Under the pieces are notes generated by a model. That model saw nothing but the letters and a program-made list of their open reading frames with translations, made no database searches and was not told the origin of the DNA. Below are positions 6,281-64,000 of a stretch of 64,000 nucleotides of DNA, piece after piece (the stretch's first letter is position 1; each line of letters starts with the position of its first letter). The stretch is from an uncultured bacterium (GTDB lineage Bacteria; Pseudomonadota; Alphaproteobacteria; MED-G09): positions 8,641 to 72,640 of the forward strand of contig CAXFAF010000003.1 in NCBI GenBank assembly GCA_964001285.1, in the 5' to 3' direction. Position numbers and translations under genes: made by a program.

Positions 6281-6284
6281 AATT

Positions 6285-8250: not shown

Positions 8251-8282
8251 TTTTAAGGGGTCAATAATTTTAAGAGGAACAA

Positions 8283-16635: not shown

Positions 16636-17316
16636 ATGAAAATTTGTCTATATTTGCTGCTTACCTTAACCATTATATCTTTTGGAAATTCTTCGCTCTC
16701 TCACCCTGGTCGGACAGACTCTAATGGAGGTCACTACAATAGGTCAACCTCCGTCTATCATTGTCACATCATAACTTGCTCAGACCTTATAGGTGATGCA
16801 ACGGACAATAATACAGGGATAACGCGATATAATAGAAAAGACTGGAGGCATTGGATAGATGAAGATGGAGACTGTCAGAACACTCGGGCAGAAATATTGA
16901 TATCGCAATCACAAGTAAGTGTAGAATTTGCCACTTCCAGAGATTGCCGAGTAATTAAAGGTTCTTGGATCGGTCGACTAACTGGAGTTCTTCTTTCCGA
17001 TGCATCAGATGTAGACATAGATCATGTAATTCCGCTTAGTTATGCTCATGGGCATGGAGGCTTTTCCTGGTCGCCGTCCAAAAAAAAGCAATTTGCAAAC
17101 GATCCACTAAACCTTATCCCTACATATGATATCGAAAACAGAAGAAAATCTGACAAGGGACCATCTGAATATTTACCGTCTGATAAAGATCTTGCCTGTT
17201 CTTATATAAAAAGATGGCAAGCGATACGAATTAAGTACGACTTAAATATCGCACCAGATGACAAGGTTATTATCCGAAATATGATTTCTACTACCTCCGC
17301 AGAGCGTTCTTGCTAA
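16636..17316 (+). CDS. secreted YHYH-domain plus HNH/DUF1524 (His-Me finger) nuclease-like protein
   Basis: 226 aa. It has a signal peptide (MKICLYLLLTLTIISFGNSSLS), an HPGRTDSNGGHYNRSTSVYHCH block (YHYH-type) and DIDHVIPLSYAHGHGG...NLIP...ENRRKSDK (HNH/GmrSD C-terminal type). Its GC is about 43-47% against about 30% in neighbours. Confidence 0.65.
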   Translation: MKICLYLLLTLTIISFGNSSLSHPGRTDSNGGHYNRSTSVYHCHIITCSDLIGDATDNNTGITRYNRKDWRHWIDEDGDCQNTRAEILISQSQVSVEFATSRDCRVIKGSWIGRLTGVLLSDASDVDIDHVIPLSYAHGHGGFSWSPSKKKQFANDPLNLIPTYDIENRRKSDKGPSEYLPSDKDLACSYIKRWQAIRIKYDLNIAPDDKVIIRNMISTTSAERSC

Positions 17317-22940: not shown

Positions 22941-23261
22941 ATGGTAAAAGTTACATTTATAGAATTCGATAAAACTGAACATACAATTGACGCTGAAAAC
23001 GAAATGTCATTGATGGAAGTAGCAATTCAGAATGGAGTCCCTGGCATTGATGCTGACTGCGGAGGTGCATGCGCTTGCGCAACTTGTCATGTTTATATTG
23101 ATTCCAACTGGATAGATAAAACGGGTACTGCAGAACAAATGGAGCAAGATATGCTTGATTTCGCATTTGATGTAACTGATCAAAGCCGACTGTCATGTCA
23201 AATTAAGGTTTCTGATGATTTAGATGGCCTAGTGGTTAATCTTCCAGAAAAACAATTTTAA
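22941..23261 (+). CDS. 2Fe-2S ferredoxin, adrenodoxin/putidaredoxin type
   Basis: 106 aa with the [12 protein letters not shown]...SC cysteine pattern of vertebrate-type ferredoxins. Confidence 0.88.
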
Positions 23262-23264
23262 ACC

Positions 23265-24296
23265 ATGAATACAAAAAATATTGAAACAGATTGTTTAATT
23301 ATAGGGGCTGGCCCTGTCGGTCTCTTTTCAGTTTTTGAATTAGGTTTATTGGATATTAAATGTAATGTTATTGATATTTTAGATAAACCAGGTGGTCAGT
23401 GTGCAGAACTTTATCCAGATAAGCCAATTTATGATATACCTGGAATTCCCGAGATTTCTGGTGACGGGTTAGTTCAGGCACTTCTCAGGCAGATTAAGCC
23501 ATTTAATCCATCCTTTCATTTATCAAGAATTGTAACGGAGCTTAAAAAAAATGATCAAAATTTATGGGAAGTAAAAACTGATTTGAATGAAACTTTTATC
23601 ACTAAAGTGATCGTTATCGCCGCTGGAGGAGGTAGCTTCCAACCAAAAAAACCACCAATAGCCGATATTGAAAAATATGAAGAAAAATCAGTATTTTATT
23701 CTATTAGAGATAAAAAGAATTTTAACGACAAGGACATCGTTATAGTTGGAGGAGGTGACTCAGCTCTTGATTGGGCTTTAGACCTACATGAACAAGCTAA
23801 TTCTTTAACGCTCATTCACAGAAGAAAAGAATTTAGAGCCTCGCCAGATAGTGTAAATAAAGTTTTTGATTTAATTGATAAGGGATTGATAAGTTTTGAA
23901 TTAGGACAAGTTAAGGACCTTATTGGTAATGATGGAGTTTTAGAATCTATTATTTTTAAAAATAAAGATGATGGAGAAGAAAAATTAAAATGTGAAATCT
24001 TATTGCCATTTTTCGGTTTGACTATGAAATTGGGACCTGTGGCTGATTGGGGTTTAAATTTAAATGAAAACCTTATTGAAGTTGATACAGAAAAATTTGA
24101 AACTAGTGAAAAAGGTATCTTTGCGATTGGAGATATTAATACTTATCCAGGAAAATTGAAATTAATACTTTGTGGTTTTCATGAGGCGGCGCTTATGTCT
24201 CAAAAGGCACATAACTATATATTCCCTGACAAAAAAATTACTTTTCAATATACTACATCAAGCACTAGTTTAAGAAAAAAGCTCGGCGTTATTTAA
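23265..24296 (+). CDS. ferredoxin-NADP+ reductase, thioredoxin-reductase-like type
   Basis: 343 aa with IIGAGPVGLF (FAD binding), GGQCAELYPDKPIYDIPG and VGGGDSALDWA (NADPH binding). Lies 3 nt after the ferredoxin. Confidence 0.85.
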   Translation: MNTKNIETDCLIIGAGPVGLFSVFELGLLDIKCNVIDILDKPGGQCAELYPDKPIYDIPGIPEISGDGLVQALLRQIKPFNPSFHLSRIVTELKKNDQNLWEVKTDLNETFITKVIVIAAGGGSFQPKKPPIADIEKYEEKSVFYSIRDKKNFNDKDIVIVGGGDSALDWALDLHEQANSLTLIHRRKEFRASPDSVNKVFDLIDKGLISFELGQVKDLIGNDGVLESIIFKNKDDGEEKLKCEILLPFFGLTMKLGPVADWGLNLNENLIEVDTEKFETSEKGIFAIGDINTYPGKLKLILCGFHEAALMSQKAHNYIFPDKKITFQYTTSSTSLRKKLGVI

Positions 24297-24558: not shown

Positions 24559-25740
24559 TTACTTCTTCATACTTAATTCTTTCATAGCTTTATCAATACC
24601 GTCAAGTGTAAGGGGAAACATTCTTCCTGAAAAAATTTGGTTAATTATTTGTGCTGATGGAGTAAATTCCCAATGTTTTTCTTCAACTGGGTTTAACCAA
24701 ATGGTGTTTGCATAAATATTATTTATCCTTTCTAACCACATACCGCCCGGTTCTTCATTCCAATGTTCTACACTTCCACCAGAATAAGTAATTTCGTAAG
24801 GACTCATCGACGCATCCCCTACAAATATTACTTTATAATCAGATGAGTATTTATGAAGAATGTCCCAAGTATTTAATCTTTCAGAATGACGCCTTCTATT
24901 ATCTTTCCAAACAAATTCATAAAGGCAATTATGAAAATAAAAATTTTCCATGTTTTTGAATTCTGTTCTTGCTGCAGAAAATAATTCTTCACACAGTTTA
25001 ACATGTGGATCCATTGAGCCACCAATGTCGAAAAATAAAAGAACTTTTACTTTGTTTCTTCTTTCAGGAACAAGAGATATGTCTAAATAACCCTTGTCAG
25101 CAGTATTTTTAATTGTTCCCGGTAGATCCAATGTGTCCGCAGCACCTTCTCTTGCGAATTTTCTTAGACGCCGAAGGGCTAGCTTTATATTCCTAATCCC
25201 AATTTCAACATCATCATCAAGGTTTTTAAATTCTCTTTTATCCCAAACTTTAACAGCCTTGAAATTTTTATTATTTTTTTGGCCAATTCTTACGCCTTCT
25301 GGATTGTATCCTTCGGCGCCGTAAGGAGATGTGCCAGCTGTTCCAATCCATTTTGATCCGCCTTCATGTCTTTTTTCTTGCTCTTCAAGTCTTTTTTTGA
25401 GCTCTTCCATTAATTTTTCCCATCCACCCATGGACTCTATTTGTTGTTTTTCTTCTTCGGTTAAGTATTTCTCGTTTAATAATTTTAACCATTCCTCAGG
25501 TATTTCTGCGGTTTCTAATTCTTCTAGATTTTCTAAACCTTTAAACACATGGCCAAATACTCTATCAAACTTATCCAGGTTTCTTTCATCTTTTACTAAA
25601 GTTGACCTTGATAAATAATAGAAATCTTCGACTTTCCTTTGAGGTATGTCTTCGTTTAATGCTTCAATAAGAGTTAGATATTCTCTTAATGTAACAGGTA
25701 TATTGGCTTGTTTGAGTTCCTGAAAAAAATTAATGAACAT
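24559..25740 (-). CDS. VWA domain protein, CoxE-like
   Basis: 393 aa with a MIDAS-like FFDIGGSMD in the C-terminal VWA domain. Lies directly downstream of a MoxR ATPase. Confidence 0.75.
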   Translation of the reverse strand: MFINFFQELKQANIPVTLREYLTLIEALNEDIPQRKVEDFYYLSRSTLVKDERNLDKFDRVFGHVFKGLENLEELETAEIPEEWLKLLNEKYLTEEEKQQIESMGGWEKLMEELKKRLEEQEKRHEGGSKWIGTAGTSPYGAEGYNPEGVRIGQKNNKNFKAVKVWDKREFKNLDDDVEIGIRNIKLALRRLRKFAREGAADTLDLPGTIKNTADKGYLDISLVPERRNKVKVLLFFDIGGSMDPHVKLCEELFSAARTEFKNMENFYFHNCLYEFVWKDNRRRHSERLNTWDILHKYSSDYKVIFVGDASMSPYEITYSGGSVEHWNEEPGGMWLERINNIYANTIWLNPVEEKHWEFTPSAQIINQIFSGRMFPLTLDGIDKAMKELSMKK

Positions 25741-25742
25741 AT

Positions 25743-26594
25743 CTAATTTTGATTATTCTCCCTTCTAGCAAGAAAAGCTAATCTTTCAAATAAATGGACA
25801 TCTTGTTCATTCTTTAATAATGCTCCATGAAGAGGAGGAATAATATTGCTTGAGTTTTTCTCTCTAAGCATTTCAGGAGTAATATCTTCATTCATTAATA
25901 ATTTTAGCCAGTCAAGAAGTTCAGAAGTAGAAGGTTTTTTCTTTAAACCCGGTATTTCTCTGAGCTCATAAAAAACTTTTAAAGATTCAGATACTAATTT
26001 TGACTTAATGTCAGGATAATGCACATCAACTATTTTCTTCATTGTTTCATTATCCGGAAAGCTAATATAATGGAAAAAACACCTTCTCAAGAAGGCATCG
26101 GGAAGTTCTTTTTCATTATTTGAGGTAATAATAACTACAGGTCGCTTTTCTGCTACTATTGTTTCTCCTGTTTCGTAAACATAAAACTCCATCCTATCTA
26201 ATTCTTGTAATAGATCATTTGGAAATTCGATATCAGCTTTATCAATTTCATCAATTAATAAAATAGGTCTTTTGTCCGAATCAAAAGCATCCCAAAGCTT
26301 TCCTTTTTTTATATAATTTTTTACATCTTTTACTCTTTCATCCCCCAATTGAGAGTCTCTTAATCTAGTAATTGCATCATATTCATATAATCCTTGTTGA
26401 GCCTTTGTTGTTGATTTTATATGCCAGGTTATAATTGGCATATCTAAGGCTTTAGCAATTTCTTCAGCTAGCACAGTTTTTCCTGTTCCTGGCTCACCTT
26501 TAACTAATAATGGTCTCTCTAAACTAATTGAGGCATTTACAGCAACTCTTAAGTCTTCCGTAGCTATATAATCTTTTGTACCTTCGAATTTCAT
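25743..26594 (-). CDS. MoxR-family AAA+ ATPase (CoxD/APE2220-like)
   Basis: 283 aa with Walker A GEPGTGKT, Walker B ILLIDEIDKA and the RCFFHYI sensor region. Confidence 0.85.
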   Translation of the reverse strand: MKFEGTKDYIATEDLRVAVNASISLERPLLVKGEPGTGKTVLAEEIAKALDMPIITWHIKSTTKAQQGLYEYDAITRLRDSQLGDERVKDVKNYIKKGKLWDAFDSDKRPILLIDEIDKADIEFPNDLLQELDRMEFYVYETGETIVAEKRPVVIITSNNEKELPDAFLRRCFFHYISFPDNETMKKIVDVHYPDIKSKLVSESLKVFYELREIPGLKKKPSTSELLDWLKLLMNEDITPEMLREKNSSNIIPPLHGALLKNEQDVHLFERLAFLARRENNQN

Positions 26595-38293: not shown

Positions 38294-39046
38294 CTATTTA
38301 TATTTAATAGATTCTTCCGACAATTGTACTTTTAAATAACTAATAGCTTTTTCTAAAGAAAGTTTATTTTTTGATGATAGTTCAATATTTACTCCAAAAT
38401 CTTTTTTAGAATCAAAGAAGGGGTAACTTCCTATATCTATATCTGAATAAGTTTTTATAATTTTTTCTAATATCTTAGCTATTTCACCTTCTGGAACTTT
38501 TACTTGTATATTTGCGCGATTAATTTTTTTTTGTGGATTAATGTATTTAAGCGATTCCTGTAGCATAGATTGCATAATCTTAGGAATACCAGCAAATACA
38601 AAAACATTGTCTATTTTAAAACCTGGAGCAGCCGATATGTTGTTTAGAATTAACTCTGCTCCAATAGGAATTCTTGCCATTCTTTGACGAACTTCATTAA
38701 ATTCATAATTATTTTTATTATAATAATTTTCTAAGATATTATAGGCTTCTTCACTTGTTTCTATTTTTACTCCAAAAGCTTCAGCAATGCTTTCGGATGT
38801 TATATCGTCATGGGTAGGCCCTATACCGCCAGTTGTAAAAACATATTTATATTTCTTTCGTAAGGTATTTATTGATGAAATTATTTCGTTCTTATCATCT
38901 AGAATAGTTCGGCATTCTAAAACTGAAACACCATAATCGTTTAAAGCCCTTACAATATAGCTAAAATTAAGATCTTGTGTCCTACCCGATAAAATCTCAT
39001 TACCAATAATAAGAATTGCAGCATTTTCTGATTTAGATTTATCCAT
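38294..39046 (-). CDS. CinA-like molybdopterin-binding (MoCF_BD) domain protein
   Basis: 250 aa with IIGNEILSGRTQDLN and TTGGIGPTHDDIT. Confidence 0.75.
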   Translation of the reverse strand: MDKSKSENAAILIIGNEILSGRTQDLNFSYIVRALNDYGVSVLECRTILDDKNEIISSINTLRKKYKYVFTTGGIGPTHDDITSESIAEAFGVKIETSEEAYNILENYYNKNNYEFNEVRQRMARIPIGAELILNNISAAPGFKIDNVFVFAGIPKIMQSMLQESLKYINPQKKINRANIQVKVPEGEIAKILEKIIKTYSDIDIGSYPFFDSKKDFGVNIELSSKNKLSLEKAISYLKVQLSEESIKYK

Positions 39047-41286: not shown

Positions 41287-41374
41287 GCGGACATGGTGGA
41301 ATTGGTAGACACATCAGACTTAAAATCTGAAGGAGATTATCTCCGTCCCGGTTCGAGTCCGGGTGTCCGCACCA
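41287..41374 (+). tRNA. tRNA-Leu (anticodon UAA), CCA encoded
   Basis: Hand-folded cloverleaf: acceptor GCGGACA/TGTCCGC; anticodon stem TCAGA/TCTGA with loop CTTAAAA; long variable arm GGAGA-tta-TCTCC; T arm CCCGG-TTCGAGT-CCGGG; then A-CCA. Confidence 0.93.
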
Positions 41375-48991: not shown

Positions 48992-49021
48992 AAAAAGGGA
49001 ACCCACATCGAGTTCCCTTTT
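48991..49021. terminator. bidirectional intrinsic terminator
   Basis: AAAAGGGAAC-ccacatcga-GTTCCCTTTT. It is followed by T4 on the + strand (end of the NifU-like gene) and T7 on the - strand (end of the candidate ncRNA). Confidence 0.7.
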
Positions 49022-49221
49022 AAAGGACCTAATCGCCCCCGATTAAGCCTGGCAAGTCGCTCTCTAAGTATAGAGTTTATCCCTTTCAGGTAAACTTACT
49101 AAGCCTAGAGTGGTTATTCTCAGGATATCGCTATCCCTACCTTCTCCATGGGTCAAAGACCAGTCAACCCTCAATGCGGCTTGTCACCCGCCCAACGATT
49201 ATTGGTCATTTCAATCGTCAC
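48992..49221 (-). ncRNA. candidate stand-alone structured RNA, family unassigned
   Basis: Gene-free GC-rich block (hand count 86/180 = 48% at 49021-49200, against 18% at 49261-49320). On the minus strand: TTGACC (49255-49250), an 18-nt spacer, TAGGAT (49231-49226). GNRA hairpin GGGAUA-GCGA-UAUCCU (49137-49122), whose G-U pair would be A-C in + orientation. Hairpin AGUUUA-ccugaaaggga-UAAACU (49096-49074). A 10-bp long-range helix joins 49207-49196 to 49035-49026. Ends in a T7 terminator. Confidence 0.55.
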
Positions 49222-49274
49222 AATTATCCTACACATAATAACTGATGCCGGTCAATTATGTGATGATGTTTTTT

Positions 49275-49303
49275 TGTGGATAAAAGAATTTTTCTGTGGA
49301 TAA
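49275..49303 (-). promoter_or_regulatory. two perfect DnaA boxes (TTATCCACA on the minus strand) in direct repeat
   Basis: TGTGGATAA occurs at 49275-49283 and 49295-49303, 20 bp centre to centre. They lie between the divergent ncRNA candidate and yidD. Confidence 0.6.
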
Positions 49304-49350
49304 TTTTTTAAATTAATTTATAGCAATATAGAATAGCTTTTTTAGTTTTT

Positions 49351-49590
49351 ATGAATATAGCAAGTAAAATATCAATTATTCTCATCAAGGGTTATAAATA
49401 TTTAATTTCTCCTTTTCTTGGGAAGTCATGTAGGTTTGAACCTTCTTGCTCCACCTATGCTTTAGAAGCTTTTAGTAGATATGGATTCTTTAAAGGTTTT
49501 AAATTATCATTAATTCGTATAATTCGTTGTAACCCTTGGGGCGGTTATGGTTATGATCCTGTCCCTATAAATGAAGAAAAAAGCAAATAA
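49351..49590 (+). CDS. yidD: membrane protein insertion efficiency factor YidD
   Basis: 79 aa with [21 protein letters not shown]......G..KG..L...RI.RCNPW. Confidence 0.9.
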
Positions 49591-52781: not shown

Positions 52782-53573
52782 ATGAAAAATTCTTCAAATA
52801 AATTAATACCTGCATCTACTGTTTTAATAGTAAGGGATGGAAAAAATGATTTGGAGGTCTTCATGGTTGTTAGACACCATGAAATTGATTTTGCATCAGG
52901 GGCGCTTGTTTTTCCTGGAGGAAAAGTTGATCAAGAGGATCTTAATATCCAAATCAATCAATTTATTAATAAAGAAAAGAAAATTAGCGATGAAGAGATG
53001 GGTTTTCGTATTGCTGGTATTAGAGAATGTTATGAGGAAGCAGGCGTTTTATTTGCAAATTCTTCTGAAAACAGTATGAGAATAACAAAGAATAGATTAT
53101 CTCAATTAGAAGTTTGGAGGGATAGATTTAACAATAAAGAGTCTTCAATGTATGATTTTGCTTCCCAAGAAAACTTAACCTTTACCGTGGATGATTTAAT
53201 TCCTTATGCGCATTGGATTACCCCTGACATGATGCCAAAAAGGTTCGATACTCGTTTTTATATTGCTGAAGCGCCAGACGGTCATAAAGGTTTGCATGAT
53301 GGGGGTGAATCCGTAGATTCTATTTGGATAAGCCCAAAACGAGCCATAGAAGATTGTAATGCAAATAAAAGAACTATTATTTTTCCTACAAGAATGAATT
53401 TAGAAAAGTTATCAAAATTTGATAATGTTGAAGACGCAATAACTTCCTTAAGAAAAGAAGAAATTGTTACCGTTGAACCCAAGATTGAAAAAAATGATGA
53501 TGGTGTATTTTTAACAATTCCTGAAAATGCAGGTTATGGAAAAATTCGCGAACCAATAGAAAATTTAAAATAA
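52782..53573 (+). CDS. NUDIX hydrolase family protein
   Basis: 263 aa with a Nudix box bearing an insertion: FPGGKVD...IRECYEEAGVL. Confidence 0.7.
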   Translation: MKNSSNKLIPASTVLIVRDGKNDLEVFMVVRHHEIDFASGALVFPGGKVDQEDLNIQINQFINKEKKISDEEMGFRIAGIRECYEEAGVLFANSSENSMRITKNRLSQLEVWRDRFNNKESSMYDFASQENLTFTVDDLIPYAHWITPDMMPKRFDTRFYIAEAPDGHKGLHDGGESVDSIWISPKRAIEDCNANKRTIIFPTRMNLEKLSKFDNVEDAITSLRKEEIVTVEPKIEKNDDGVFLTIPENAGYGKIREPIENLK

Positions 53574-53574: not shown

Positions 53575-54342
53575 TTAAGAGTAGGTGAATTGTTCTTCTA
53601 TAATTTTTTCTTCAAGATTTGTTTCTGAATCAAAAAGCATAAATAATTCTGTATCCCTATCTTCATTAATTTTTACTGATAATACATCTCTAATTTCAAG
53701 ATTATCAGCAACCGCACTTACAGGTCTTTTTTTATTTTCTAAAATATTTATTTCTACTTCAGAATTATGTGGGATTAAGGCTCCTTTCCATCTCCTAGGT
53801 CTGAAAGCTGATATCGGAGTTAAAGCTAGTAGGTTTGAGGTTATAGGTAGAATAGGTCCATGAGCGGATAAATTATAAGCAGTACTTCCTGCGGGAGTTG
53901 ATAATAGGACGCCATCACAAATTAATTCCTCTAATCTATTTTTCCCGTCAATCTTAATTCCTAATTTTGCTGCTTGGTAACTTTGTCTTAAAAGAGAAAC
54001 TTCATTAATTGCTTTAGCTAAAACCTCTTCATTCTCTGTTTTAGCATACATCTGAAGAGGATGAACCATAGTTGAGGTTGCAGAATTAATTCTTTCCATA
54101 AGGTTATCATTATTAAATTCGTTCATTAGGAATCCAACAGAACCTCTGTTAATTCCAAATATAGGTTTTGCTTGTTCAATGTTATCATGAAGTGTTTGAA
54201 GCATTAATCCATCTCCGCCGAGCGCTACTATTACATCAGCCTCAGAAACTGAAAAATTCTTATACTCTTCCATTAAATCTTTCTTAGCCTTTATGGCTTC
54301 AGTATTTTCACTCGATACAAAATGTAATTTTTTATCTGCCAT
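53575..54342 (-). CDS. nadK: NAD+ kinase
   Basis: 255 aa with the GGDGLML motif and [17 protein letters not shown]. Confidence 0.9.
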
Positions 54343-54449: not shown

Positions 54450-55613
54450 ATGAATATTAACTTAAATAAAATAGATTTAATGAGTTCGGAAGAGCTTAAA
54501 GATCCATCTATATCTGCTAAAAAATTGCTTAAAAGTGAACCCGCTTATTATTATGATTTATATAATCCCCCATTTTATATTCTTTCTAGATATAATGATG
54601 TTCGTACCGCATTACATGATCCTGAAACATTTATGGAAGGTTTAGGAAATGGACCAAATTTTGTTGAATCTAACGGTATTTTATCCGACGGCAAACATCA
54701 TACTTTAATAAGAAGAATAGTTCAGCCAAATTTTCTTATGGGATCTATTGCAAATTTAGAAAAAAGATTAATAGAAATTGCTGAAGAATTGTTAGAAAGT
54801 GTTGTTGCTAAAGAAGTTTGGGATATCCATGATGATTTATCTTTTCCTCTTCCAGTGATTATCATTTGTGAAATTCTAGGTATCCCTACTAATGACATAA
54901 AGAAATTCAAGAAATGGGCAGATGCTTCTGTTGCTCAAATGTGCTCAGAAGACCCTCTAGAATTTATTGAAGAATTAAGTAAAAAAGATAAATATTTTTT
55001 AGATCTTATTCATAAAAAAAGGAACGAACAAGAGGAAGACACTTTGATATCAAAAATTGCTCATGCAAAAATAGATTCCGAATATCTATCGGATGATGAG
55101 TCCGTTAATTTAGCTAGTCAAATTTTTGTTGCTGGAAATGAAACCACTACATCGTTAATTTCCAATCTAATTTGGAGAATGTTATCTATCGAAAACCTAT
55201 GGAAGGATTTTGTTGAGGGTAAGATAAATATTGATAATGCAATAAATGAAAGCTTACGCTTTGATCCTCCTTTATTAGGTTTATTTAAAACAACAACAAG
55301 AGATATTGATATTAATGGATCAACTATTCCTGCGAATACAAAGGTTTTGATGCATTATGGGGCTGCAAACAGGGATCCTAAGGTATTTAGTAAGCCCAAT
55401 GAATTTGATGTTGCTCGAGACGGAACAAAAGTAATATCTTTTAGTGTAGGAATCCATATTTGCTTAGGAAGAGAATTAGCCAAACTGGAGACTCGTGTAG
55501 CGTTAAATGTTTTAAGAAAAAAATTTCCTAATTTGAATTTAATCAATAATGGTGAGCGTGTTGGCCCTTTTCTTTTTTGGGGAAGAAGTAAATTACCCGT
55601 TTCACACAAATAA
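54450..55613 (+). CDS. cytochrome P450
   Basis: 387 aa with I-helix FVAGNETTTS, ExxR (ESLRFDPP) and heme loop FSVGIHICLGRELA. Confidence 0.9.
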   Translation: MNINLNKIDLMSSEELKDPSISAKKLLKSEPAYYYDLYNPPFYILSRYNDVRTALHDPETFMEGLGNGPNFVESNGILSDGKHHTLIRRIVQPNFLMGSIANLEKRLIEIAEELLESVVAKEVWDIHDDLSFPLPVIIICEILGIPTNDIKKFKKWADASVAQMCSEDPLEFIEELSKKDKYFLDLIHKKRNEQEEDTLISKIAHAKIDSEYLSDDESVNLASQIFVAGNETTTSLISNLIWRMLSIENLWKDFVEGKINIDNAINESLRFDPPLLGLFKTTTRDIDINGSTIPANTKVLMHYGAANRDPKVFSKPNEFDVARDGTKVISFSVGIHICLGRELAKLETRVALNVLRKKFPNLNLINNGERVGPFLFWGRSKLPVSHK

Positions 55614-55622
55614 AAGGTCATT

Positions 55623-57107
55623 ATGTTTTTAGTTATTGATCAAGGCACTACATCAACAAAAGTCGTTCTTTTCGACATAGAGGGAAAAAAGATAGATGTT
55701 TCGCAAAAGAGTTTTAAACAAATTTTTCCTGAAAATGGTTGGGTAGAACATAATCCTAAAGAAATAATTGAAACGGTTATAAATTGTTGTAATGAAATTA
55801 TTGACAGGAATCCTGATAAAAAAATTTCCTCTTTAGGAATAACTAATCAAAGAGAAACAACAGTTTTATGGAATAAGGAAACAGGAGAACCCCTTTATAA
55901 TGCTATTGTTTGGCAAGATAGAAGAACTGAAGAAACATGCAAGAAGTTAAAAGAAAGAGATTTAGAGAAGAAAATTAGTGAAAAGACCGGGCTATTATTA
56001 GATCCCTATTTTTCCTCTACAAAGATCTCATGGATAATTGAAAATATTGAAGGGATACAAGATAAAATAAAAAATGATCAGATTTGTGCAGGCACTATAG
56101 ATTCATGGATAATATGGAATTTAACCAATGGAGAAACGTTTGCTACCGATGTGACTAATGCTTCTAGGACTAATCTTTATAATATTAAGAGTCTAGAGTG
56201 GGACGAAGACTTATTGCAAATTTTTAAGATTAATAAAAAAATTCTTCCAGAAGTGAGAAATTCAGATGCTTTTTATGGAGAAACTAAAGCTTTAGTTAAA
56301 AAATTACCCATTTATGGGGTTATAGGAGACCAGCAATCTGCAGCTATTGGACAATTTTGCTTTAACGAAGGAGATATCAAGTCAACATATGGAACGGGAT
56401 CTTTTGTTTTGCTAAACACTGGTAAAAATATTGTTCATTCCAATAATGGTATTTTATCTACCATAGGATATAAAATTAAAGATGAAATATCTTATGCCTT
56501 AGAAGGATCGATTTTTATGGCAGGGGCAGTAGTAGATTGGTTGAAGAATAATCTACAAGTATTTGATAATATTAAACAAATGGAAGTTATATTAAGAGAT
56601 ACTAATATAAATCCAAATGTTGTTTTAATACCTGCATTTACTGGATTAGGCGCGCCGCATTGGAGTCCAAATAGCCGCGCATCTATTTTTGGTTTAACTA
56701 GAGACACAAATAAGGATGAGATCATTGTATCTTCGATTCAAGCTATTTCACTACAAACTTATGATCTGTTAAATTTACTAAATGATGATATTTCTCAACA
56801 TAATATAAAACCATTTAATAAAATAAGGATTGATGGAGGAATGACTGAAAACCAATGGTTTTTACAAAACCTTTCAGATATTTGCAATATAACAATAAGC
56901 AAATCTTATGAGAAAGAAGCAACTTCTTTAGGCGCTGCAATAGTATCTGGAATAGGCTCTAGAAACATTAAGGATTTAGTGGAGTTTGAGTCAATTTTAT
57001 CTAAGAGTGAAACATTTAGACCAAAAATGGAAAATAAGTTAAGAGATAAAATTATTTCTAATTGGAATTCTGCTATTAAACAAACTATGGGTATGTCTTT
57101 TGAATAA
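55623..57107 (+). CDS. glpK: glycerol kinase
   Basis: 494 aa FGGY kinase with IDQGTTSTK, GITNQRETTVLWN, VWQDRRT and GDQQSA. Confidence 0.92.
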   Translation: MFLVIDQGTTSTKVVLFDIEGKKIDVSQKSFKQIFPENGWVEHNPKEIIETVINCCNEIIDRNPDKKISSLGITNQRETTVLWNKETGEPLYNAIVWQDRRTEETCKKLKERDLEKKISEKTGLLLDPYFSSTKISWIIENIEGIQDKIKNDQICAGTIDSWIIWNLTNGETFATDVTNASRTNLYNIKSLEWDEDLLQIFKINKKILPEVRNSDAFYGETKALVKKLPIYGVIGDQQSAAIGQFCFNEGDIKSTYGTGSFVLLNTGKNIVHSNNGILSTIGYKIKDEISYALEGSIFMAGAVVDWLKNNLQVFDNIKQMEVILRDTNINPNVVLIPAFTGLGAPHWSPNSRASIFGLTRDTNKDEIIVSSIQAISLQTYDLLNLLNDDISQHNIKPFNKIRIDGGMTENQWFLQNLSDICNITISKSYEKEATSLGAAIVSGIGSRNIKDLVEFESILSKSETFRPKMENKLRDKIISNWNSAIKQTMGMSFE

Positions 57108-57145
57108 AGCTGGTTTTATATTTGTAAAAATTGTAGAGTCATAAA

Positions 57146-57901
57146 ATGAACTCAAAAATTAAAGATACGGTATCTGAAGAGGAGTGGGATGCTAGAGTTG
57201 AACTTGCGGCTCTTTATAGATTGGTCGCTCTTTATGGTTGGGATGATCTTGTTTTTACTCATATTTCGGTAAGAGTCCCATCAGAACCGGAACATTTTCT
57301 TTTAAATCCTTACGGCTTATTGTTTGATGAGATTTGCGCATCTGATCTAGTTAAAATTGATCTTGAGGGAAATAAAGTTTCTGAAACAAATTACAATGTT
57401 AATGCAGCTGGTTTTACAATCCATTCTGCAGTTCATTCTTCAGGAACTAATAATCATGCCGTTATTCATACTCACTCAAATGATGGTGTAGCCGTAGCTG
57501 CGCAAGAAAATGGATTACTGCCGATAAGTCAACATGCAATGATAATAAGAAATGATTGTGCCTATCATGATTATGAGGGAATAGCTTTGAATCTTGATGA
57601 ACGTGAAAGACTGATCGAAGATTTATCAGACAAACATTGTTTAATACTTAAAAATCACGGTCTTCTTACTACAGGAGCTACTTGTGGAGATGCATGGTTA
57701 AGACTCTTCTTTCTTGAAAGGGCATGTACAATGCAAATAAAAGCATTAACAGGCGGCTCAAAGTTAAATGATGTACCAAATGATGTGGTAGAGTTAGTTA
57801 CTGAGCAAGGCCAAATGGCTTCAGATGATGGCATTGGTCAATTAGCTTGGCCAGGACTATTAAGAAAATTAGATAAATTAGATCCTAGCTATAAACAATA
57901 A
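57146..57901 (+). CDS. class II aldolase/adducin-fold protein
   Basis: 251 aa with metal ligands AVIHTHS and LKNHGLLT. Its specific activity is not assignable. Confidence 0.75.
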   Translation: MNSKIKDTVSEEEWDARVELAALYRLVALYGWDDLVFTHISVRVPSEPEHFLLNPYGLLFDEICASDLVKIDLEGNKVSETNYNVNAAGFTIHSAVHSSGTNNHAVIHTHSNDGVAVAAQENGLLPISQHAMIIRNDCAYHDYEGIALNLDERERLIEDLSDKHCLILKNHGLLTTGATCGDAWLRLFFLERACTMQIKALTGGSKLNDVPNDVVELVTEQGQMASDDGIGQLAWPGLLRKLDKLDPSYKQ

Positions 57902-57915
57902 ATTAGGGAGTATTT

Positions 57916-60228
57916 ATGAAATTTGCTGTTGGTCAACCTGTAACGCGTATTGAAGATACCCGATTAATAAAAGGTAAGGGCACATATACTGACGATATAA
58001 AATTCCAAAACATGTGTTATGGGGTTTTTGTAAGATCACCTTATGCTCATGCTAAAATCCTAAGCGTTGATATTCAAGAAGCAAAAAAAATGCCCGGTGT
58101 CGTAGATATTTACACTGGGGCAACTTTTACTAACGATGGCATTACTCACATGTCAGTAATAGATTTTTTACAAAACAAAGACGGATCACCAATGAGTGCA
58201 AGTAAAAGACCAATCCTTGCAGTTGATAGAGTAAGGCATGTTGGGGACCCTGTTGTTTTTATTTTAGCAGAATCTGTTAATGAAGCTTTAGATGCATCGG
58301 ATCTTGTTGTTATTGAATATGAAGAATTACCAAGTAATTCTGATACCGCTAAAGCTCTTGATACAGATTCTCCAAAGCTATTTGAAGAATTTTCGTCAAA
58401 CTGCGCAGTTGATTGGGGAATTGGATCTGATGAAGACTGGGAAAAGGTAAAAAAAGAAGCTCATCATGTATCTCATGTTCATCTTATTAATAATAGGATT
58501 GTAGTTAATCCTATTGAGCCTCGTTCTGCTATATCAACTTTTGATAAAGATTCTAACAAATATACAATGCATGTTGAAAGCCAAGGTCCGCATGCAATGC
58601 GAGAAAGATTAGCCAATACTTTAAATATAAAAGAAGATGATATCCAGGTAATCACTAAAGATGTAGGTGGTGGTTTTGGTTTAAAAATGATGTGCTTCCC
58701 TGAGTATATTGCGGTAATGCATGCTAGCAGGCATTTATCACGACCAGTAAAATGGACTGCTACGCGCTCAGAATCATTTCTAAGTGACGCACAAGGAAGA
58801 GATCATGTTACGGATGCCTATTTAGCATTAGATAAAGACGGAAAATTTCTTGGCGTTAATGTTGGTACAACTGCTGCTGTAGGGGCTTATTTATCTCAGT
58901 ATGGTATTTTTATTCCTACTTTAGCAGCAGCGGGAATGCATGTGGGAGTTTATAATATCCCTGTTATGATTAACAATGTTAAAGTTGTTTACACAAATAC
59001 GGTTCCCATTGATGCTTATCGTGGAGCAGGGAGACCAGAGGCAAGTTATGTAATTGAACGATTGGTAGATCAGGCTGCTAAAGATATGTCAATGAATCCA
59101 ATTGAAATTAGAAAGATAAATTATGTTCAATCTTCTGATTTAGGAAAAACCGAGGACCCTGTTATTCCTTTTGATAGTTGTGACTTTGATAAAACAACCG
59201 ATAGATCTATAATAAATTCTTCTTTAGAAGATTTTGAAGTACGAAAAAGCAATTCAGAAGAAAAGAATAAATTAAGAGGTGTAGGTATTTCTTATTATGT
59301 AGAAAGAACTCAAGGAGAAGGGTCGGAGGATTCAAGAATAATTGTTTCTAGTGACGGACAGGTAAAAGTATTTACTGGAACTATGGCTACAGGACAGGGT
59401 CACGAAACAGCATGGACTCAAATCGTTGTTGAGAAACTTGGAGTTAATCCTGAAGATGTATCAATTATTTTTGGAGATAGTAATGATTTACCAAGTGGAG
59501 GAGGAACAGGAGGATCCAAATCTTTATATTTTGCTGCTGGTGCTATAAATGATGCTTCAGATAATGTTCTGACCAAAGGAAAAGAAATTGCAGCAAGTCA
59601 GTTAGAGTCTTCTATTGATGAGATAGAATATAATACAGATTCAGGTCCTTTGTTTCAGGTAAAAGATACCAATAGAAATATTGATTTATTTTCTGTAGCT
59701 AAGATTGCAGAAGAACAATCTAACACAAAAACATTTGATGGAATTGCTGCTTACGAACACAAAGATCCAACTTATCCAAATGGTTGTCATATTTGTGAAG
59801 TAGAAATCGATAGAGATACAGGGAATATCGATTTAGTTGATTATTATGCTGTCGACGACTTTGGAAAAATTATTAATCCTTTACTTGTTGCAGGACAAGT
59901 ACATGGAGGGATAGTGCAAGGACTTGGCCAAGCTATGTGTGAGCATGCCATTTATGAAGATGAAACTGGGCAATTAGTTAATGGTTCATATATGGACTAT
60001 CAAATGCCAAGAGCCGATGATTTTCCTCATTTTAATATTGAGTTCAATGAAGATGCTGAATGCACAACAAATTTATTAGGGGCTAAAGGCTGCGGAGAAG
60101 CAGGAACTGTGGCCTCAACTACAGCTTATGTAAATGCTGTTTTAAACGCTTTGAAAGATTACAATACTGAAGATTTAAATATGCCAATTAACCCCAAAAA
60201 AGTATGGGAGATTATCAATAATGATTAA
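57916..60228 (+). CDS. xanthine dehydrogenase-family molybdopterin-binding large subunit, form-II CoxL-like
   Basis: 770 aa with N-terminus [23 protein letters not shown] and active-site loop AYRGAGRPE (form II, not the VAYRCSFR of true CO dehydrogenases). No adjacent small (2Fe-2S) or medium (FAD) subunit. Confidence 0.88.
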
Positions 60229-61480
60229 AGAGCTTTTACATCCAGAAAAATGGAATCCAAATATCGATCCTTCCTCTATTCCAATTGAAGAATTTGATAT
60301 GGCTAATTCAGATATTTTTATGTATGGAGATGCAATATACCCATTATTTGAAAGATTAAGGAATGAAGACCCAGTCCATTTTTGTCCGGAATCTTGTGTG
60401 GAGGGAGCAGGAGCTTATTGGTCAGTAACAAAATATAATGATATTATGAGTGTTGATACAAACCATAAAGTTTTCTCATCTGAAGGCGCGATTACACTGT
60501 TTGACCCAGAAGAGGATTTTACCACTCCAATGTTTATAGCTATGGATCCTCCTAAACACGATGTTCAAAGAAAAGCTGTTAATCCAGTAGTTGCACCTAG
60601 CAATTTAGTTAATATGGAGGGTTTGATAAGAGAGAGAACACAAGAAGTTTTAGATAGTTTACCAAGAAATAAAAAATTTAACTGGGTTGAGCATGTGTCT
60701 ATTGAATTAACAACCAGAATGTTAGCAACATTATTTGATTTTCCTTTTGAGGACCGAAGAAAGTTAACGCGTTGGTCGGATGTATCAACTGCAAGACCAG
60801 GTGATGGCATTGTTGAATCAGAAGAACAAAGAGAGCAGGAATTATATGAGTGTCTAGAATATTTCACACGATTGTGGAATGAAAGGGTAAACTCTGAACC
60901 AAAAACTGATTTAATATCTATGTTAGCTCATAACCCTGAGACAAGAAATATGGATCCTATGGAATATCTTGGTAATCTTATCCTTTTAATTGTCGGAGGA
61001 AATGATACTACCAGAAACTCGATGACAGGAGGTATTTTGGCTTTAAATGAAAATCCTGATCAGTACGATAAATTAAGAAACGATCATTCTTTAATTAAAT
61101 CAATGGTACCAGAAATTATCAGATGGCAGACACCTCTTGCATATATGAGGAGAACAGCACTCGAGGATATTGAATTGGGCGGAAAGCTCATAAAAAAAGG
61201 TGATAAAGTTATAATGTGGTATGTTTCAGGAAATAGGGATGACGATGTAATTAAGGACCCAAATTCCTTTATTATTGACAGAGAAAGACCTAGAACTCAT
61301 CTCTCTTATGGATTTGGAATTCATAGATGCGTAGGCAATAGATTGGCCGATCTTCAATTAGAGATCTTGTGGGAAGAAATCATGAAGAGGTTTGAAAATA
61401 TTGAAGTTGTTGGTGAGCCTTCTAGAATAAGGTCTAGCTTTGTCAAAGGTTATGCAGATCTTCCAGTAATTATACATTAA
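60221..61480 (+). CDS. cytochrome P450, CYP153 (terminal alkane/alkyl hydroxylase) family signature
   Basis: 419 aa with [12 protein letters not shown]-helix [21 protein letters not shown] and heme loop [14 protein letters not shown]. Overlaps the upstream Mo-enzyme gene by 8 nt. Confidence 0.85.
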
Positions 61481-61488
61481 CTAACTCC

Positions 61489-61968
61489 ATGTTAGATAAA
61501 TCAAACAAAGAATTACGCAAAACCTTTGGGAGGTTTGCTACTGGCGTTGCGGTTATAACTTTTGAGAATATTAAGGGGCAAAAATTAGGAATAACTATTA
61601 ATTCTTTCACTTCTTTATCTTTAAAACCACCTATGATTTTATGGTGTCTCGACAAATCTTCGGACTTATATGAAGAGATTTTAAATATTAATCACTATAC
61701 TGTCAGTTTTCTTTCAGAATTACAGGAAGAAATTGCACATTCTTTGGCTCAAAAAAATGACCACTCCTTGGATTCAATTAAGCATAAAGAGGTATCAAAT
61801 GGATTAATAATAGAGGGATGCATTGGTTGGATATCTTGCACTAATAACAAAACTATCGATTCAGGAGATCACTCTATTCTTGTAGCTGATGTTATAGATT
61901 GTAAAGAAAATAGCGGAAAACCGTTAATTTTTTGGGGAAGTGAGTATACTAATTTAATTTCAAGTTAA
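61489..61968 (+). CDS. flavin reductase-like (HpaC/RutF-type) FMN-binding protein
   Basis: 159 aa with FGRFATGVAVIT....G...G.T.NSF.S.SL.PP..L.C. Confidence 0.8.
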   Translation: MLDKSNKELRKTFGRFATGVAVITFENIKGQKLGITINSFTSLSLKPPMILWCLDKSSDLYEEILNINHYTVSFLSELQEEIAHSLAQKNDHSLDSIKHKEVSNGLIIEGCIGWISCTNNKTIDSGDHSILVADVIDCKENSGKPLIFWGSEYTNLISS

Positions 61969-62035
61969 TTATTTGATTTAAATTGAAAATTTAAGATTTT
62001 TGTATAAAATGGTTTAAGCCCTGGGGAGGATAAAA

Positions 62036-64000
62036 ATGAAATTGTTTACTGTTAAATTAACTATTTTTAGTTTTTTGTTGATTTCTTTATTTCCTTTAGA
62101 TCTTGCTTTTTCTCAAGATAGTGAGACTTTAGAAGGAATTGAAGAAATTGTTGTTACTGCTCGTAAGAGAGAAGAGAATATTCAAGAGACCGCACTTTCG
62201 GTTAGCGCTTTAAGTAGTAGAGATCTTGATAGAAGGTTTCCCAACGATATTAGAGATTTGGCTGGAGATTCACCAAACTTAATTATTGATGATTTACAAC
62301 AAGGACCCGGAAGTCCAACAGCTATTTTTATTAGAGGTATAGGTGTTTCAGATGTAGAAAAGAATTTTGACCCTACAACTGGTGTTGTCATTGATGGCGT
62401 TTTTGTAGGCGCTAACTCTGGAGCAATGTTAAAAACTATTGATCTTGAGAAAGTTGAAATTTTAAGAGGTCCTCAAGGCACTTTATTTGGACGAAATACA
62501 GTTGCTGGCGTAATAAATCTGACTCGTACTCGACCAACTGGAGAAGTTGGAGGAAAAGTAAGAGTAGGTTATGGAGATTATGATACCAGCCTTGTAGATG
62601 CCATTTTTAATTTTGGAAATGAAACAGCAGCTTTTAAAATTAGCACTACTCATAGAGAACAAAAAGAAGGATTTTTAACAAATTTAGTAGATGGATCAGA
62701 TCTTGGCAGAGAAGAATATTACCAGGTAACCGCAAATGCTCTTTTTTCATTTAATGAGAATGTTGAAATAGAATTAACATTCACTGATGAACAACAAGAT
62801 CAAGATGCTCATACAAGTTTAAATCTTGGCGCCGCGGGAACTTGGTGGTGTGCAGCTTACGGACAGTGTTCACCTGGTATTGGAATTCCTCAAAGTGGTG
62901 ACAGATGGGCGGTATATAACAATGAACCTAAAAGAAGAGATGCATTTTTTGAAAGTAAAACTGGAATTCTCGAAGTTCGTTGGGATTTATCTGATAATTA
63001 TAGAGTAGATTATATTTTAGGAAGAAAAACTACAGACGAAGAAGTCGATCAAGATTGGGACGGTACACCGCTCACATTGTATCATACTGATAGAAGAGCG
63101 GAATATGAACAAGACAGCCATGAATTGAGACTAACAAGTGATCTTGATGGTAGTTTTAATTTTGTTGTTGGTCTATATAAATGGGACTCTGAGTATACAA
63201 TTCCAATGGAAAGTAGAATTGGATTTTTTGATTTATTTGGTGCTGTTCCAAGGACTGACCCATTGATTGTTGTTCCTATTTACGCTTTTACAAACCAAGA
63301 AACAGATTCTATTGCAGTCTTTTTTGAAGGTGATTATGACATTAATGATCAATGGACTTTAACACTAGGAGGTCGTTTTATTGATGAAGAGAAGCAAACA
63401 TATGCGTGTCAAGGACCTGGGCCATACCCTGATTGCAGTCAGTTAGATGTTTCAGCTAAAAAATCATGGGATGAATTCACACCTAAAGTTGCAGTAAGCT
63501 ATCAGATGAATGAGGATATTTTATATTATCTATCTTATTCCGAAGGCTTCCGTAGTGGTGGATTTAATGGAAGATGGGGAAATGCATTTACCGCAACAAC
63601 ACCTTATGATCCTGAAACAGTAACAAATATTGAGGTTGGGGTTAAATCAACGCTTATGAATAATAGGCTAAGACTAAATGTTGCAGTTTTTGATATGGAA
63701 TATGATGATAAGCAAATTGATGTTGATGTTGCAGATCCATCTGCAGCCTTAGGTCGTTCAACTGTTTCAGCAAATGTTGCCGAAGCAACTTTCAGCGGAG
63801 TTGAATTAGAGATCTATGCTATTGTTAATCAAAATTTATCTCTTGATTTAAATGTGGGTATTCTAGATGCAGAATATGATCAGTTTTTTGCTGATTTCCT
63901 AGGAACAGGAACACCAAAAGATTATTCTTATCTTGAACCACTAAGAGCTCCTGAATTAACATGGACTTTTGGTATTAACTATGAATGGCCGCTTGGTCCT
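62036..64000 (+). CDS. TonB-dependent receptor (5' portion; runs off the window end)
   Basis: Not in the ORF track because no stop is reached. I translated it by hand in frame from the ATG at 62036 (GGAGGA 6 nt upstream) with no stop to 64000 (655 codons). It has a signal peptide, the plug GIEEIVVTARKREENIQETALSVSALS, VEILRGPQGTLFGRNTVAGVINLTR and barrel YLSYSEGFRSGGFNGR. Confidence 0.88.
   Translation, partial: MKLFTVKLTIFSFLLISLFPLDLAFSQDSETLEGIEEIVVTARKREENIQETALSVSALSSRDLDRRFPNDIRDLAGDSPNLIIDDLQQGPGSPTAIFIRGIGVSDVEKNFDPTTGVVIDGVFVGANSGAMLKTIDLEKVEILRGPQGTLFGRNTVAGVINLTRTRPTGEVGGKVRVGYGDYDTSLVDAIFNFGNETAAFKISTTHREQKEGFLTNLVDGSDLGREEYYQVTANALFSFNENVEIELTFTDEQQDQDAHTSLNLGAAGTWWCAAYGQCSPGIGIPQSGDRWAVYNNEPKRRDAFFESKTGILEVRWDLSDNYRVDYILGRKTTDEEVDQDWDGTPLTLYHTDRRAEYEQDSHELRLTSDLDGSFNFVVGLYKWDSEYTIPMESRIGFFDLFGAVPRTDPLIVVPIYAFTNQETDSIAVFFEGDYDINDQWTLTLGGRFIDEEKQTYACQGPGPYPDCSQLDVSAKKSWDEFTPKVAVSYQMNEDILYYLSYSEGFRSGGFNGRWGNAFTATTPYDPETVTNIEVGVKSTLMNNRLRLNVAVFDMEYDDKQIDVDVADPSAALGRSTVSANVAEATFSGVELEIYAIVNQNLSLDLNVGILDAEYDQFFADFLGTGTPKDYSYLEPLRAPELTWTFGINYEWPLGP

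Follow-up and report, generated by a model that had tools for sequence, protein, structure and literature searches.

The DNA analysed here is a 64,000-nt window (the whole stretch is called the window below) from a marine alphaproteobacterium of the PS1/OCS116 type (Parvibaculales), referred to as the window lineage. The open reading frames (ORFs) in 54450..64000, at the end of the window, form a row of seven genes encoding two cytochromes P450, a glycerol kinase, an aldolase-fold protein, a molybdenum hydroxylase subunit, a flavin reductase and a TonB-dependent receptor. This row is probably a mosaic of an old gene string and a newer, strain-variable oxidation island, and not one pathway. An earlier note on the window had read it as a single pathway dismantling an imported glycerol-linked lipid. 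That reading is not supported, because the genes of the row differ in evolutionary age.

The gene inventory in the earlier note was correct. Searches of each ORF with profile hidden Markov models, together with matches to solved structures, returned all seven families as named. All seven genes are on the + strand, and re-measurement of the junctions gave exactly the reported values of 9, 38, 14, -8, 8 and 67 nt. The row and its left border consist of the following genes.

52782..53573 (+): NUDIX-like protein (263 aa) with a weak PF00293 match; part of the ancient syntenic backbone, outside the oxidative row
53575..54342 (-): NAD kinase, PF01513 and PF20143; divergent from the row, left border of the ancient backbone
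54450..55613 (+): P450a, class I-type cytochrome P450; PF00067, 108 bits
55623..57107 (+): GlpK, glycerol kinase; TIGR01311, 612.9 bits against a cut-off of 590.35
57146..57901 (+): AldII, class II aldolase/adducin fold; PF00596, 155.6 bits, and NF005451, 369 bits
57916..60228 (+): MoL, large subunit of the xanthine oxidase family; PF01315, PF02738 and PF20256 above their cut-offs
60221..61480 (+): CYP153A, cytochrome P450; 65% identity to CYP153A7
61489..61968 (+): FlaRed, NAD(P)H:flavin reductase; PF01613, 110 bits
62036..64000 (+): TonB-dependent receptor (TBDR); PF07715 plug and PF00593 barrel, cut by the window end at 655 of 745 aa

Layered conservation of the row

About 180 related loci, labelled L001 onward, were compared with the window proteins by tblastn. 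MoL served to find 80 of them, in species-level genomes, and CYP153 a further 80, in metagenomes; the others were reached from homologues of MoL, P450a and AldII. The closest genomes belong to the Rhodobiaceae, PS1 clade and OCS116 cluster, and the next closest to Parvibaculum and the Parvibaculaceae. When the GTDB species genomes are grouped by the identity of their MoL to that of the window, the genes of the row are present as follows.

MoL identity at least 80%: AldII 4/4, GlpK 4/4, P450a 4/4, CYP153 4/4, FlaRed 4/4, TBDR 2/4
MoL identity 70-80%: AldII 3/3, GlpK 3/3, P450a 0/3, CYP153 2/2, FlaRed 2/2, TBDR 1/2
MoL identity 48-56%: AldII 15/19, GlpK 15/16, P450a 0/16, CYP153 0/17, FlaRed 0/17, TBDR 0/15

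The oldest layer has the order NUDIX-like (+), NAD kinase (-), (MoaA), GlpK, (GlcD-like FAD oxidase), AldII and MoL. It is present in the Parvibaculaceae, where MoL is 48-56% identical to that of the window, and at 42-49% MoL identity in the Micropepsaceae (L060), in Rhizomicrobium (L091), in a metagenome-assembled genome (MAG) of the Acetobacteraceae (L047) and in several unclassified Alphaproteobacteria. The NUDIX-like gene adjoins the NAD kinase gene from PS1 through Parvibaculum, the Micropepsaceae and Rhizomicrobium. Where glpK-AldII-MoL occurs in the Parvibaculaceae, Micropepsaceae, Rhizomicrobium and Acetobacteraceae, the locus is free of P450, flavin reductase and receptor genes, and the string beyond PS1 runs on instead with TetR, an unannotated protein of 345 aa (unk345), a short-chain dehydrogenase/reductase (SDR) and a luciferase-like monooxygenase (LLM). 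Of the row itself only AldII-MoL, usually with GlpK, extends beyond PS1. GlpK lies upstream of AldII-MoL in 15 of the 16 Parvibaculaceae-level loci but is dispensable to the pair, which stands without it in L043, L048 and L100; it is missing also from L099.

The second layer is PS1-wide. CYP153A and the flavin reductase follow MoL in all six PS1 genomes with enough flanking sequence, and MoL directly precedes CYP153 in 11/11 low-GC metagenome contigs of PS1 type that include the upstream flank. Neither of the two follows MoL in any locus of the Parvibaculaceae or of more distant groups, and neither MoL, AldII, GlpK nor FlaRed is found near CYP153 in any of 66 non-PS1 CYP153 loci.

P450a forms a third and narrower layer, restricted to loci with a MoL at least 82% identical to that of the window (one PS1 subclade). 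PS1 lineages with 71-75% MoL identity lack it, and their NAD kinase gene adjoins glpK (about 75 nt apart in L011); in the window subclade P450a is seated between these two genes. The receptor is the most scattered element. It is present in L017, L019, L021, L106, L107, L111, L114 and L115 and absent from L016, L018, L011/12, L020, L096-98, L103, L108-110 and L113. With the genome and metagenome sets pooled, a little over half of the close-relative loci carry it. The six-gene order from P450a to FlaRed is kept throughout one PS1 subclade. The row thus recurs outside this genome and is no accident of a single assembly. Recent horizontal transfer of the row genes was rejected as an explanation since the GC and GC3 content of every gene matches that of the housekeeping genes.

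The packing of the row, described in the earlier note as operon-like, is no tighter than the genomic background. Outside the row, the window has 33 same-strand gaps with a median length of 7 nt, whereas the median within the row is 11.5 nt (Mann-Whitney p=0.53), and eight plainly unrelated genes at 80-9554, for branched-chain amino-acid synthesis, cell shape, an acyltransferase and a P450, follow one another on the same strand. The window has about 33% GC and is about 95% coding. Tight spacing is the default of such a genome and no sign of an operon: the short junctions result from genome streamlining, and shared function does not follow from them. To judge from these junctions the row is probably co-transcribed, but the gene set is not co-inherited across genomes as that of a single operon would be, its conservation being layered. 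A consensus scan gave 40 promoter-like sites against 43.5 expected from shuffled sequences and 4 terminator-like sites against 5.1 expected, so the scan cannot judge the junctions. One promoter-like site lies at 61983-62010 in the 67-nt gap upstream of the receptor, in a scan that as a whole is not above the shuffles. Rfam and tRNA scans found no riboswitch or other RNA element within the row. The methodological lesson is that the modules can be separated here by comparative layering alone, packing being uninformative in a 95% coding genome.

A history that fits these layers can be outlined. The string of NUDIX-like gene, NAD kinase gene and glpK-AldII-MoL would have been inherited from a common ancestor with Parvibaculum and beyond, with AldII and MoL acting as a conserved pair on some substrate and the adjacent glpK presumably encoding the normal glycerol kinase. 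An island acting on hydrophobic compounds may have been placed directly after MoL in the ancestor of PS1. CYP153A would head this island and hydroxylate the alkyl terminus, and genes past the window end, for SDRs, a Baeyer-Villiger monooxygenase (BVMO), an esterase and an iron-containing alcohol dehydrogenase (Fe-ADH), would act on the resulting alcohols, ketones and esters in the manner of the classical terminal and subterminal routes. An SRPBCC protein in the same region probably binds a lipophilic ligand. Electrons for the P450s would be fed in trans by a ferredoxin and a ferredoxin-NADP reductase (FNR) encoded 31 kb upstream. The flavin reductase could be the leftover partner of the LLM that sister lineages keep between MoL and CYP153, and P450a and the TonB-dependent receptor would be later, lineage-specific additions.

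Glycerol kinase, AldII and the lone molybdenum subunit

GlpK scores 608.9 bits against the NF000756 model (cut-off 498), 492 bits against the Sinorhizobium GlpK 4e1j and 456 bits against the GlpK of Escherichia coli. Inspection of the translation, in place of a structural alignment, shows that it holds the glycerol-contact motifs NQRETT, VWQDRR, PYFS, GDQQSA and YGTGSF; the basis for this check is the set of glycerol contacts in E. coli GlpK, namely R83, E84, W103, Y135, D245 and F270. By these matches GlpK is an ordinary orthologue, predicted to be the normal glycerol kinase of the cell. Relatives do not show glpK among ordinary glp genes, as they would if it were merely juxtaposed here: DAO-type GlpD, the MIP channel and the DeoR regulator are all missing from the Pfam hits of the window and of the related loci.

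Conservation within the row is highest for AldII (93-94% identity to L016-21), and the top three are AldII, MoL and CYP153. The closest structure to AldII is that of the uncharacterised protein 3ocr, and the adducin heads are also near. In an alignment with the E. coli FucA sequence, H108, H110 and H171 of AldII correspond to the metal site H92, H94 and H155, and these residues are kept in 36 orthologues. At the position of FucA Ser71-Ser72-Glu73, which provide the phosphate-binding serines and the catalytic glutamate (Glu73), AldII has Ala-Ala-Gly (VNAAGFTIH). AldII therefore lacks the equivalents of these residues and is not a canonical sugar-phosphate aldolase, and it scores 20-40 bits against the FucA, AraD and MtnB models, which have cut-offs of 137-400. 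The superfamily also holds decarboxylases and oxygenases such as NovR, PhtC and HMPDdc. AldII, a conserved partner of the molybdenum subunit, is on this comparison a predicted metal-dependent enzyme of the aldolase fold.

An FGGY kinase together with a class II aldolase is a classical catabolic pairing, known from fucK/fucA, araB/araD and rhaB/rhaD. The row shares with these systems an FGGY kinase gene directly upstream of a PF00596 gene. It differs from them in that the kinase is an orthologous glycerol kinase and in that the aldolase-fold protein has Ala-Ala-Gly in place of Ser71-Ser72-Glu73.

MoL has the form-II loop AYRGAGR. This loop and the motifs GGGFG and GEAG are invariant among the orthologues, and the invariance of the motifs for the molybdenum cofactor (Moco) and for catalysis indicates an enzyme under selection. 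The best solved relative is the CoxL of Mycobacterium smegmatis, 8uem (405 bits), and the best NCBIfam match is the alpha subunit of glyceraldehyde dehydrogenase (NF041018), with 586 bits against a cut-off of 790; models for CO dehydrogenase score almost as high. Identification of MoL as a form I aerobic CO dehydrogenase was rejected, since its loop is AYRGAGR and not AYXCSFR and it scores 439 against the TIGR02416 cut-off of 991. Assignment as the alpha subunit of a glyceraldehyde oxidoreductase by NF041018 was likewise not accepted because the score is below the curated cut-off.

The earlier observation that the cluster has no CoxS or CoxM holds throughout the 64-kb window by both pattern and Pfam searches. 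The CoxS pattern QCG[FY]C..G, searched in six frames, matches nothing in the window or L001-L010, nor in any of the AldII-linked loci, while the same search recovered 13 positive-control loci, paralogues in which CoxS is directly upstream of the large subunit. The window has 58 ORFs of 110 aa or more, and in the 56 of these that were scanned with Pfam there is no Fer2_2 or FAD_binding_5 domain; no gene for an iron-sulphur (FeS) or FAD subunit lies within the window, the next 10 kb or about 35 AldII-linked loci. A neighbour-joining tree places the AldII-linked MoL proteins apart from the CoxS-linked paralogues of Azospirillum and Reyranella. MoL shares with the form-II enzymes of coxSLM type (8uem, 7dqx, 1t3q, 1ffu) the three large-subunit domains and the motifs AYRGAGR, GGGFG and GEAG. 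Unlike in those systems, an aldolase-fold gene always precedes MoL and no genes for FeS or FAD subunits are nearby. This deep pairing of AldII with a molybdenum subunit in the absence of neighbouring electron-transfer subunit genes is the sole feature of the row left unexplained.

Two other regions of the window were considered as support for MoL and not used. The pair of a VWA protein (CoxE-like, 29 bits) and an AAA MoxR-like protein at 24559-26594 (-) received no CoxD or CoxE call by NCBIfam, and the PF00994 protein at 38294-39046 is CinA-like and not an enzyme of Moco synthesis. In non-PS1 relatives a gene for MoaA, which acts in Moco biosynthesis, adjoins the NAD kinase gene upstream of GlpK/AldII-MoL. 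It was found in L013:4916-5941, L100:6924-7919, L041, L043, L047, L060 and one more locus, and at that position in none of the PS1 loci. The MoL gene of the PS1 MAG L019 (L019:9591-11894) has an in-frame TAG at codon 709; MoL is intact in the equivalent contig L107, and the stop is therefore a strain mutation or an assembly error.

The steadier companions of AldII are unk345, SDR and LLM, rather than GlpK. The unk345 protein, of about 345 aa, is absent from the window and was found in L026:14555-15589, L013:13199-14233, L099:8741-9763 and 20 other loci. It is 53-94% identical beside AldII/MoL, SDR and LLM across several alphaproteobacterial orders and has ExxH-like motifs and a single cysteine; no Pfam, NCBIfam or PDB match was obtained for it. 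The LLM shows generic luciferase-family similarity alone and is 72-80% identical across orders. Its identity of 72-94% across PS1, Parvibaculaceae and unclassified Alphaproteobacteria (L019:11933-13186, L107:7745-9000, L100:11120-12331, L099:9790-11079) is unusually high for a catabolic LLM. One locus, L099:8001-11804, has AldII-unk345-LLM-SDR with neither a molybdenum subunit nor glpK, which implies that the function of AldII is not strictly dependent on MoL.

The oxidation island and its redox partners

CYP153A is 65% identical to CYP153A7 (3rwl) over 398 aligned residues (588 bits) and 67% identical to 7ant (600 bits). It carries the I-helix signature GGNDTTRN and the heme-thiolate loop, both of which align with the motifs of 7ant and 3rwl. 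P450 nomenclature assigns proteins with at least 55% identity to a named member to the CYP153A subfamily, and by this rule the gene at 60221-61480 encodes a CYP153A subfamily member, predicted to be a terminal hydroxylase of alkyl chains.

P450a is far more isolated. Among solved structures it matches CYP109B1/YjiB and Vdh best (about 175-182 bits), and the heme loop FSVGIHICLG and the I-helix motif AGNETT are present. Among 1.84 billion representative sequences there is one full-length match at 55% identity, and all others are at 39% or less. The 55% relative is on a contig of 1.6 kb, where the fragment downstream of it is not glpK. Going by these matches, P450a is an isolated family; by its distribution it is a lineage-specific addition between the NAD kinase gene and glpK.

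Neither P450 has an adjacent ferredoxin or ferredoxin reductase, as the earlier note had stated; none is found in the row or in the 10 kb downstream. Pfam scans also agree with the note that there is no regulator domain near the row. The ferredoxin and reductase genes that it had pointed to elsewhere in the window are real, and the reductase gene starts 3 nt after that of the ferredoxin.

22941..23261 (+): [2Fe-2S] ferredoxin of adrenodoxin/putidaredoxin type (106 aa); Cys motif present, TIGR02007 63 bits, under the cut-off
23265..24296 (+): FNR of thioredoxin-reductase type (343 aa); PF07992 and PF13738, TRX_reduct 121 bits, under the cut-off

For the redox partners of the P450s, this pair, 31 kb upstream of the row, is the sole candidate in the window. 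An adjacent ferredoxin, 49-60% identical to that of the window, is present in 12 of the 66 non-PS1 CYP153 loci. The likeness of the window ferredoxin to such CYP153-adjacent ferredoxins supports a partner role in trans, and we infer that the pair is likely to supply the P450s with electrons. The fdx-CYP153-FdR clusters of Alcanivorax, Marinobacter and Mycobacterium HXN-1500 are alkane or fatty-acid omega-hydroxylase operons. The row resembles CYP153A operons in the 65% identity to CYP153A7, of Sphingopyxis macrogoltabida, and in having a ferredoxin like those beside other CYP153s. The arrangement is nevertheless unlike that of the canonical operons: there is no adjacent ferredoxin, reductase or AraC-type regulator, and the gene lies between MoL and a flavin reductase. 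A third P450 (423 aa) is encoded at 8283-9554 (+), convergent with and overlapping by 4 nt a PF02544 protein similar to 3-oxo-5-alpha-steroid 4-dehydrogenase at 9551-10300 (-); the genes at 8283-10300 may be a separate sterol- or terpenoid-modifying pair.

The flavin reductase resembles reductases of the FerA, StyB and HpaC types, with all scores under the cut-offs. No other gene of the row is so poorly conserved (57-61% identity to L016-21), and the L011 copy is truncated. No oxygenase partner for it was found in the window or the next 10 kb, and the low conservation and the truncation in L011 fit a loss of this partner. The likeness to two-component flavin monooxygenases (HpaBC, StyAB, LuxAB/Fre) lies in a PF01613 reductase of the size and type of HpaC, StyB and FerA. 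Sister lineages have an LLM gene two genes upstream of the reductase, between MoL and CYP153 (L019 and L107), whereas the window locus has no oxygenase.

The statement that the receptor closes the cluster is false, being an artefact of the window edge. At least 22 marine metagenome contigs and one MAG encode a flavin reductase identical to that of the window, and these show that the row runs on past the window end. The receptor (745 aa) is followed by SRPBCC, a type I BVMO on the opposite strand, SDR and SDR, then an esterase of the hormone-sensitive lipase (HSL) type, the Fe-ADH, a further SDR and the alpha subunit of a Rieske oxygenase. The BVMO scores 467 bits against TmCHMO/PAMO, and the esterase and the Fe-ADH were assigned by family matches. 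The earlier remark that the cluster has neither an alcohol nor an aldehyde dehydrogenase is, for the alcohol dehydrogenase, another artefact of the window edge: three SDRs and the Fe-ADH lie within 7 kb downstream, while no PF00171 aldehyde dehydrogenase was found in Pfam scans of the window or in the 10 kb downstream.

Baeyer-Villiger routes are known for ketones, cycloalkanols and subterminal alkane oxidation, both of chnABCD type and as pairs of a BVMO and an esterase such as acmAB and mekAB. The downstream block is similar to these in combining a type I BVMO, two SDRs, an HSL-type esterase and the Fe-ADH, but it varies between strains, the L096-98 variant having neither BVMO nor esterase, and it comes with no aldehyde dehydrogenase and no regulator. 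In L011, from the PS1 lineage with 71% MoL identity, a Rieske oxygenase and DUF2805 are on the opposite strand, together with a 183-aa protein and an APH-type phosphotransferase (L011:14114-15609, L011:17342-18937). Content that differs in this way identifies the part of the locus beyond the flavin reductase as a flexible island.

The full-length receptor, seen in L001, has a signal peptide, starts with MKLFTVKLTIFSFLLISLFPLDLAFSQ and ends in a C-terminal Phe. Its matches to solved structures are weak (best PDB match 64 bits), and no TonB or ExbBD genes were seen in the window. DdvT of Sphingobium SYK-6 is an example of TonB-dependent uptake of a hydrophobic or aromatic catabolic substrate. 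Common to such uptake systems and the row is a receptor inside a catabolic oxygenase cluster, here with SRPBCC proteins at the flanks; the receptor of the row differs in having no close characterised relative and in being present or absent among close relatives. Tandem duplicates of the SRPBCC gene (START/Bet v 1-like) occur in L016:14052-14980, L017:14063-17300, L021, L106 and L108, with the receptor between the copies where it is present, which suggests that the receptor has been inserted into, or excised from, an SRPBCC pair. On one non-PS1 contig (L179:10876 onward, GC 0.55) a distant receptor homologue (24%) directly follows CYP153, the only such case in the 66 loci.

Alternative explanations and wider context

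In the pathway proposed by the earlier note, the receptor imports an alkylglycerol or ether lipid, P450a frees glycerol for GlpK and an aldehyde for MoL, and CYP153 acts on the alkyl end. It is extremely improbable, even though every gene identity that it needs is right. P450a does stand directly before glpK wherever it is found in PS1 and, as an isolated family, has no assigned substrate. Its only 55% relative, however, is not followed by glpK, it is absent from PS1 lineages with GlpK-AldII-MoL-CYP153, and GlpK-AldII-MoL exists without any P450 in other orders. About half of the close relatives that keep the other genes have no receptor, and the model gives AldII and the flavin reductase no role. 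Known ether-lipid cleavage is of the alkylglycerol-monooxygenase type, in the fatty-acid hydroxylase superfamily PF04116; Pfam gave no hit to it in the 56 ORFs scanned in the window or in the genes downstream, although a P450 route is still possible. A triose or glycerol module would place the chemistry in the old string instead: cleavage by AldII would give a glyceraldehyde-like aldehyde, MoL would convert it to the acid, as the glyceraldehyde oxidoreductase of archaea does, and the phosphorylation of glycerol or a triose would fall to GlpK. This is very unlikely. The recurrence of GlpK upstream of AldII-MoL, at the Parvibaculaceae level and also in the Micropepsaceae, Rhizomicrobium and Acetobacteraceae, speaks for it, as do the classical status of the FGGY kinase and class II aldolase pairing and the rank of glyceraldehyde dehydrogenase alpha as the best NCBIfam model for MoL. 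That model, however, scores 586 under its cut-off of 790, AldII lacks the catalytic glutamate and the phosphate-binding serines, and GlpK is a standard orthologue and no divergent FGGY kinase. It is also missing from the AldII-MoL loci L043, L048 and L100 and the AldII locus L099, and unk345, SDR and LLM accompany AldII more steadily.

It is possible, though unlikely, that the row is a PS1-specific integrated operon, in which parts of different origin have been welded together for alkyl-chain oxidation with MoL as the aldehyde oxidoreductase. The P450s would make alcohols and the downstream dehydrogenases aldehydes, and MoL might pass its electrons to free ferredoxin. The order P450a-GlpK-AldII-MoL-CYP153-FlaRed is kept in PS1 variants, AldII, MoL and CYP153 are the best conserved of its members, and MoL and CYP153 overlap by 8 nt. 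The overlap is, however, confined to the window subclade: the two genes are 66 nt apart in L011 and separated by the LLM gene in L019 and L107. The lack of a PF00171 aldehyde dehydrogenase and the best NCBIfam match of MoL, an aldehyde-oxidising enzyme, at 586 bits agree with such an operon, but that score is well under 790 and CO dehydrogenases score nearly as high. Furthermore, the adjacency of AldII and MoL is older than any P450 at the locus, glpK and AldII have no explained role in it, and there is no FeS subunit to carry electrons onward. A further, rather improbable idea is that AldII and the lone molybdenum subunit form the core of an undescribed alphaproteobacterial pathway of wide conservation, with unk345, SDR and LLM in relatives, in which the molybdenum subunit acts without dedicated FeS or FAD subunits; in PS1 this subunit would be translationally coupled to CYP153A and may exchange electrons with the free [2Fe-2S] ferredoxin of the P450s. 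If this is true, aldehyde oxidation by the PS1 molybdenum subunit would help to pay for P450 hydroxylation.

Some observations also weigh against a mosaic. PS1 lineages whose P450a proteins diverge by as much as 30% share the gene order from P450a to FlaRed, and the 8-nt overlap of MoL and CYP153 suggests translational coupling in the window subclade. With no aldehyde dehydrogenase in the 10 kb downstream, MoL could be a recruited aldehyde-oxidising step. The substrates of all the enzymes are, moreover, read from family membership alone. The mosaic nevertheless remains the probable explanation.

Surface-ocean metagenomes are rich in bacteria of the PS1/OCS116 type. An identical flavin-reductase sequence is indexed in 71 blocks of the assembly collection, and the homologue clusters of the row genes have hundreds of member sequences. 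The conserved CYP153A together with variable genes for BVMO, esterase, dehydrogenases and receptor suggests that the clade may take part in the hydrocarbon cycle of the open ocean, as a consumer of alkanes or other alkyl compounds. Two surveys of the ocean hydrocarbon cycle name other taxa for CYP153 and not PS1, and no description of this cluster was found in the literature on PS1 clade genomes, marine CYP153 or the combination of aldolase, glycerol kinase and molybdopterin. All the components are of families already described, to which CYP153A, the BVMO block and the receptor add new members from a clade for which no description was found.

The window is core chromosome, with ilvHC, leuA, mreB-PBP2-rodA, recA, alaS, purLQC, cysS and thrS. 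The tRNA-Leu(taa) at 41287-41374 (+) is the sole RNA gene in the window by Rfam and ARAGORN. The longest same-strand gap is 599 nt (48992-49590), from a NifU-like gene to thrS, and relatives carry an annotated short YidD ORF in the corresponding gap. A GmrSD_C restriction-endonuclease domain is present in a small protein encoded at 16636-17316 (+), between a sodium:alanine symporter and an amidohydrolase.

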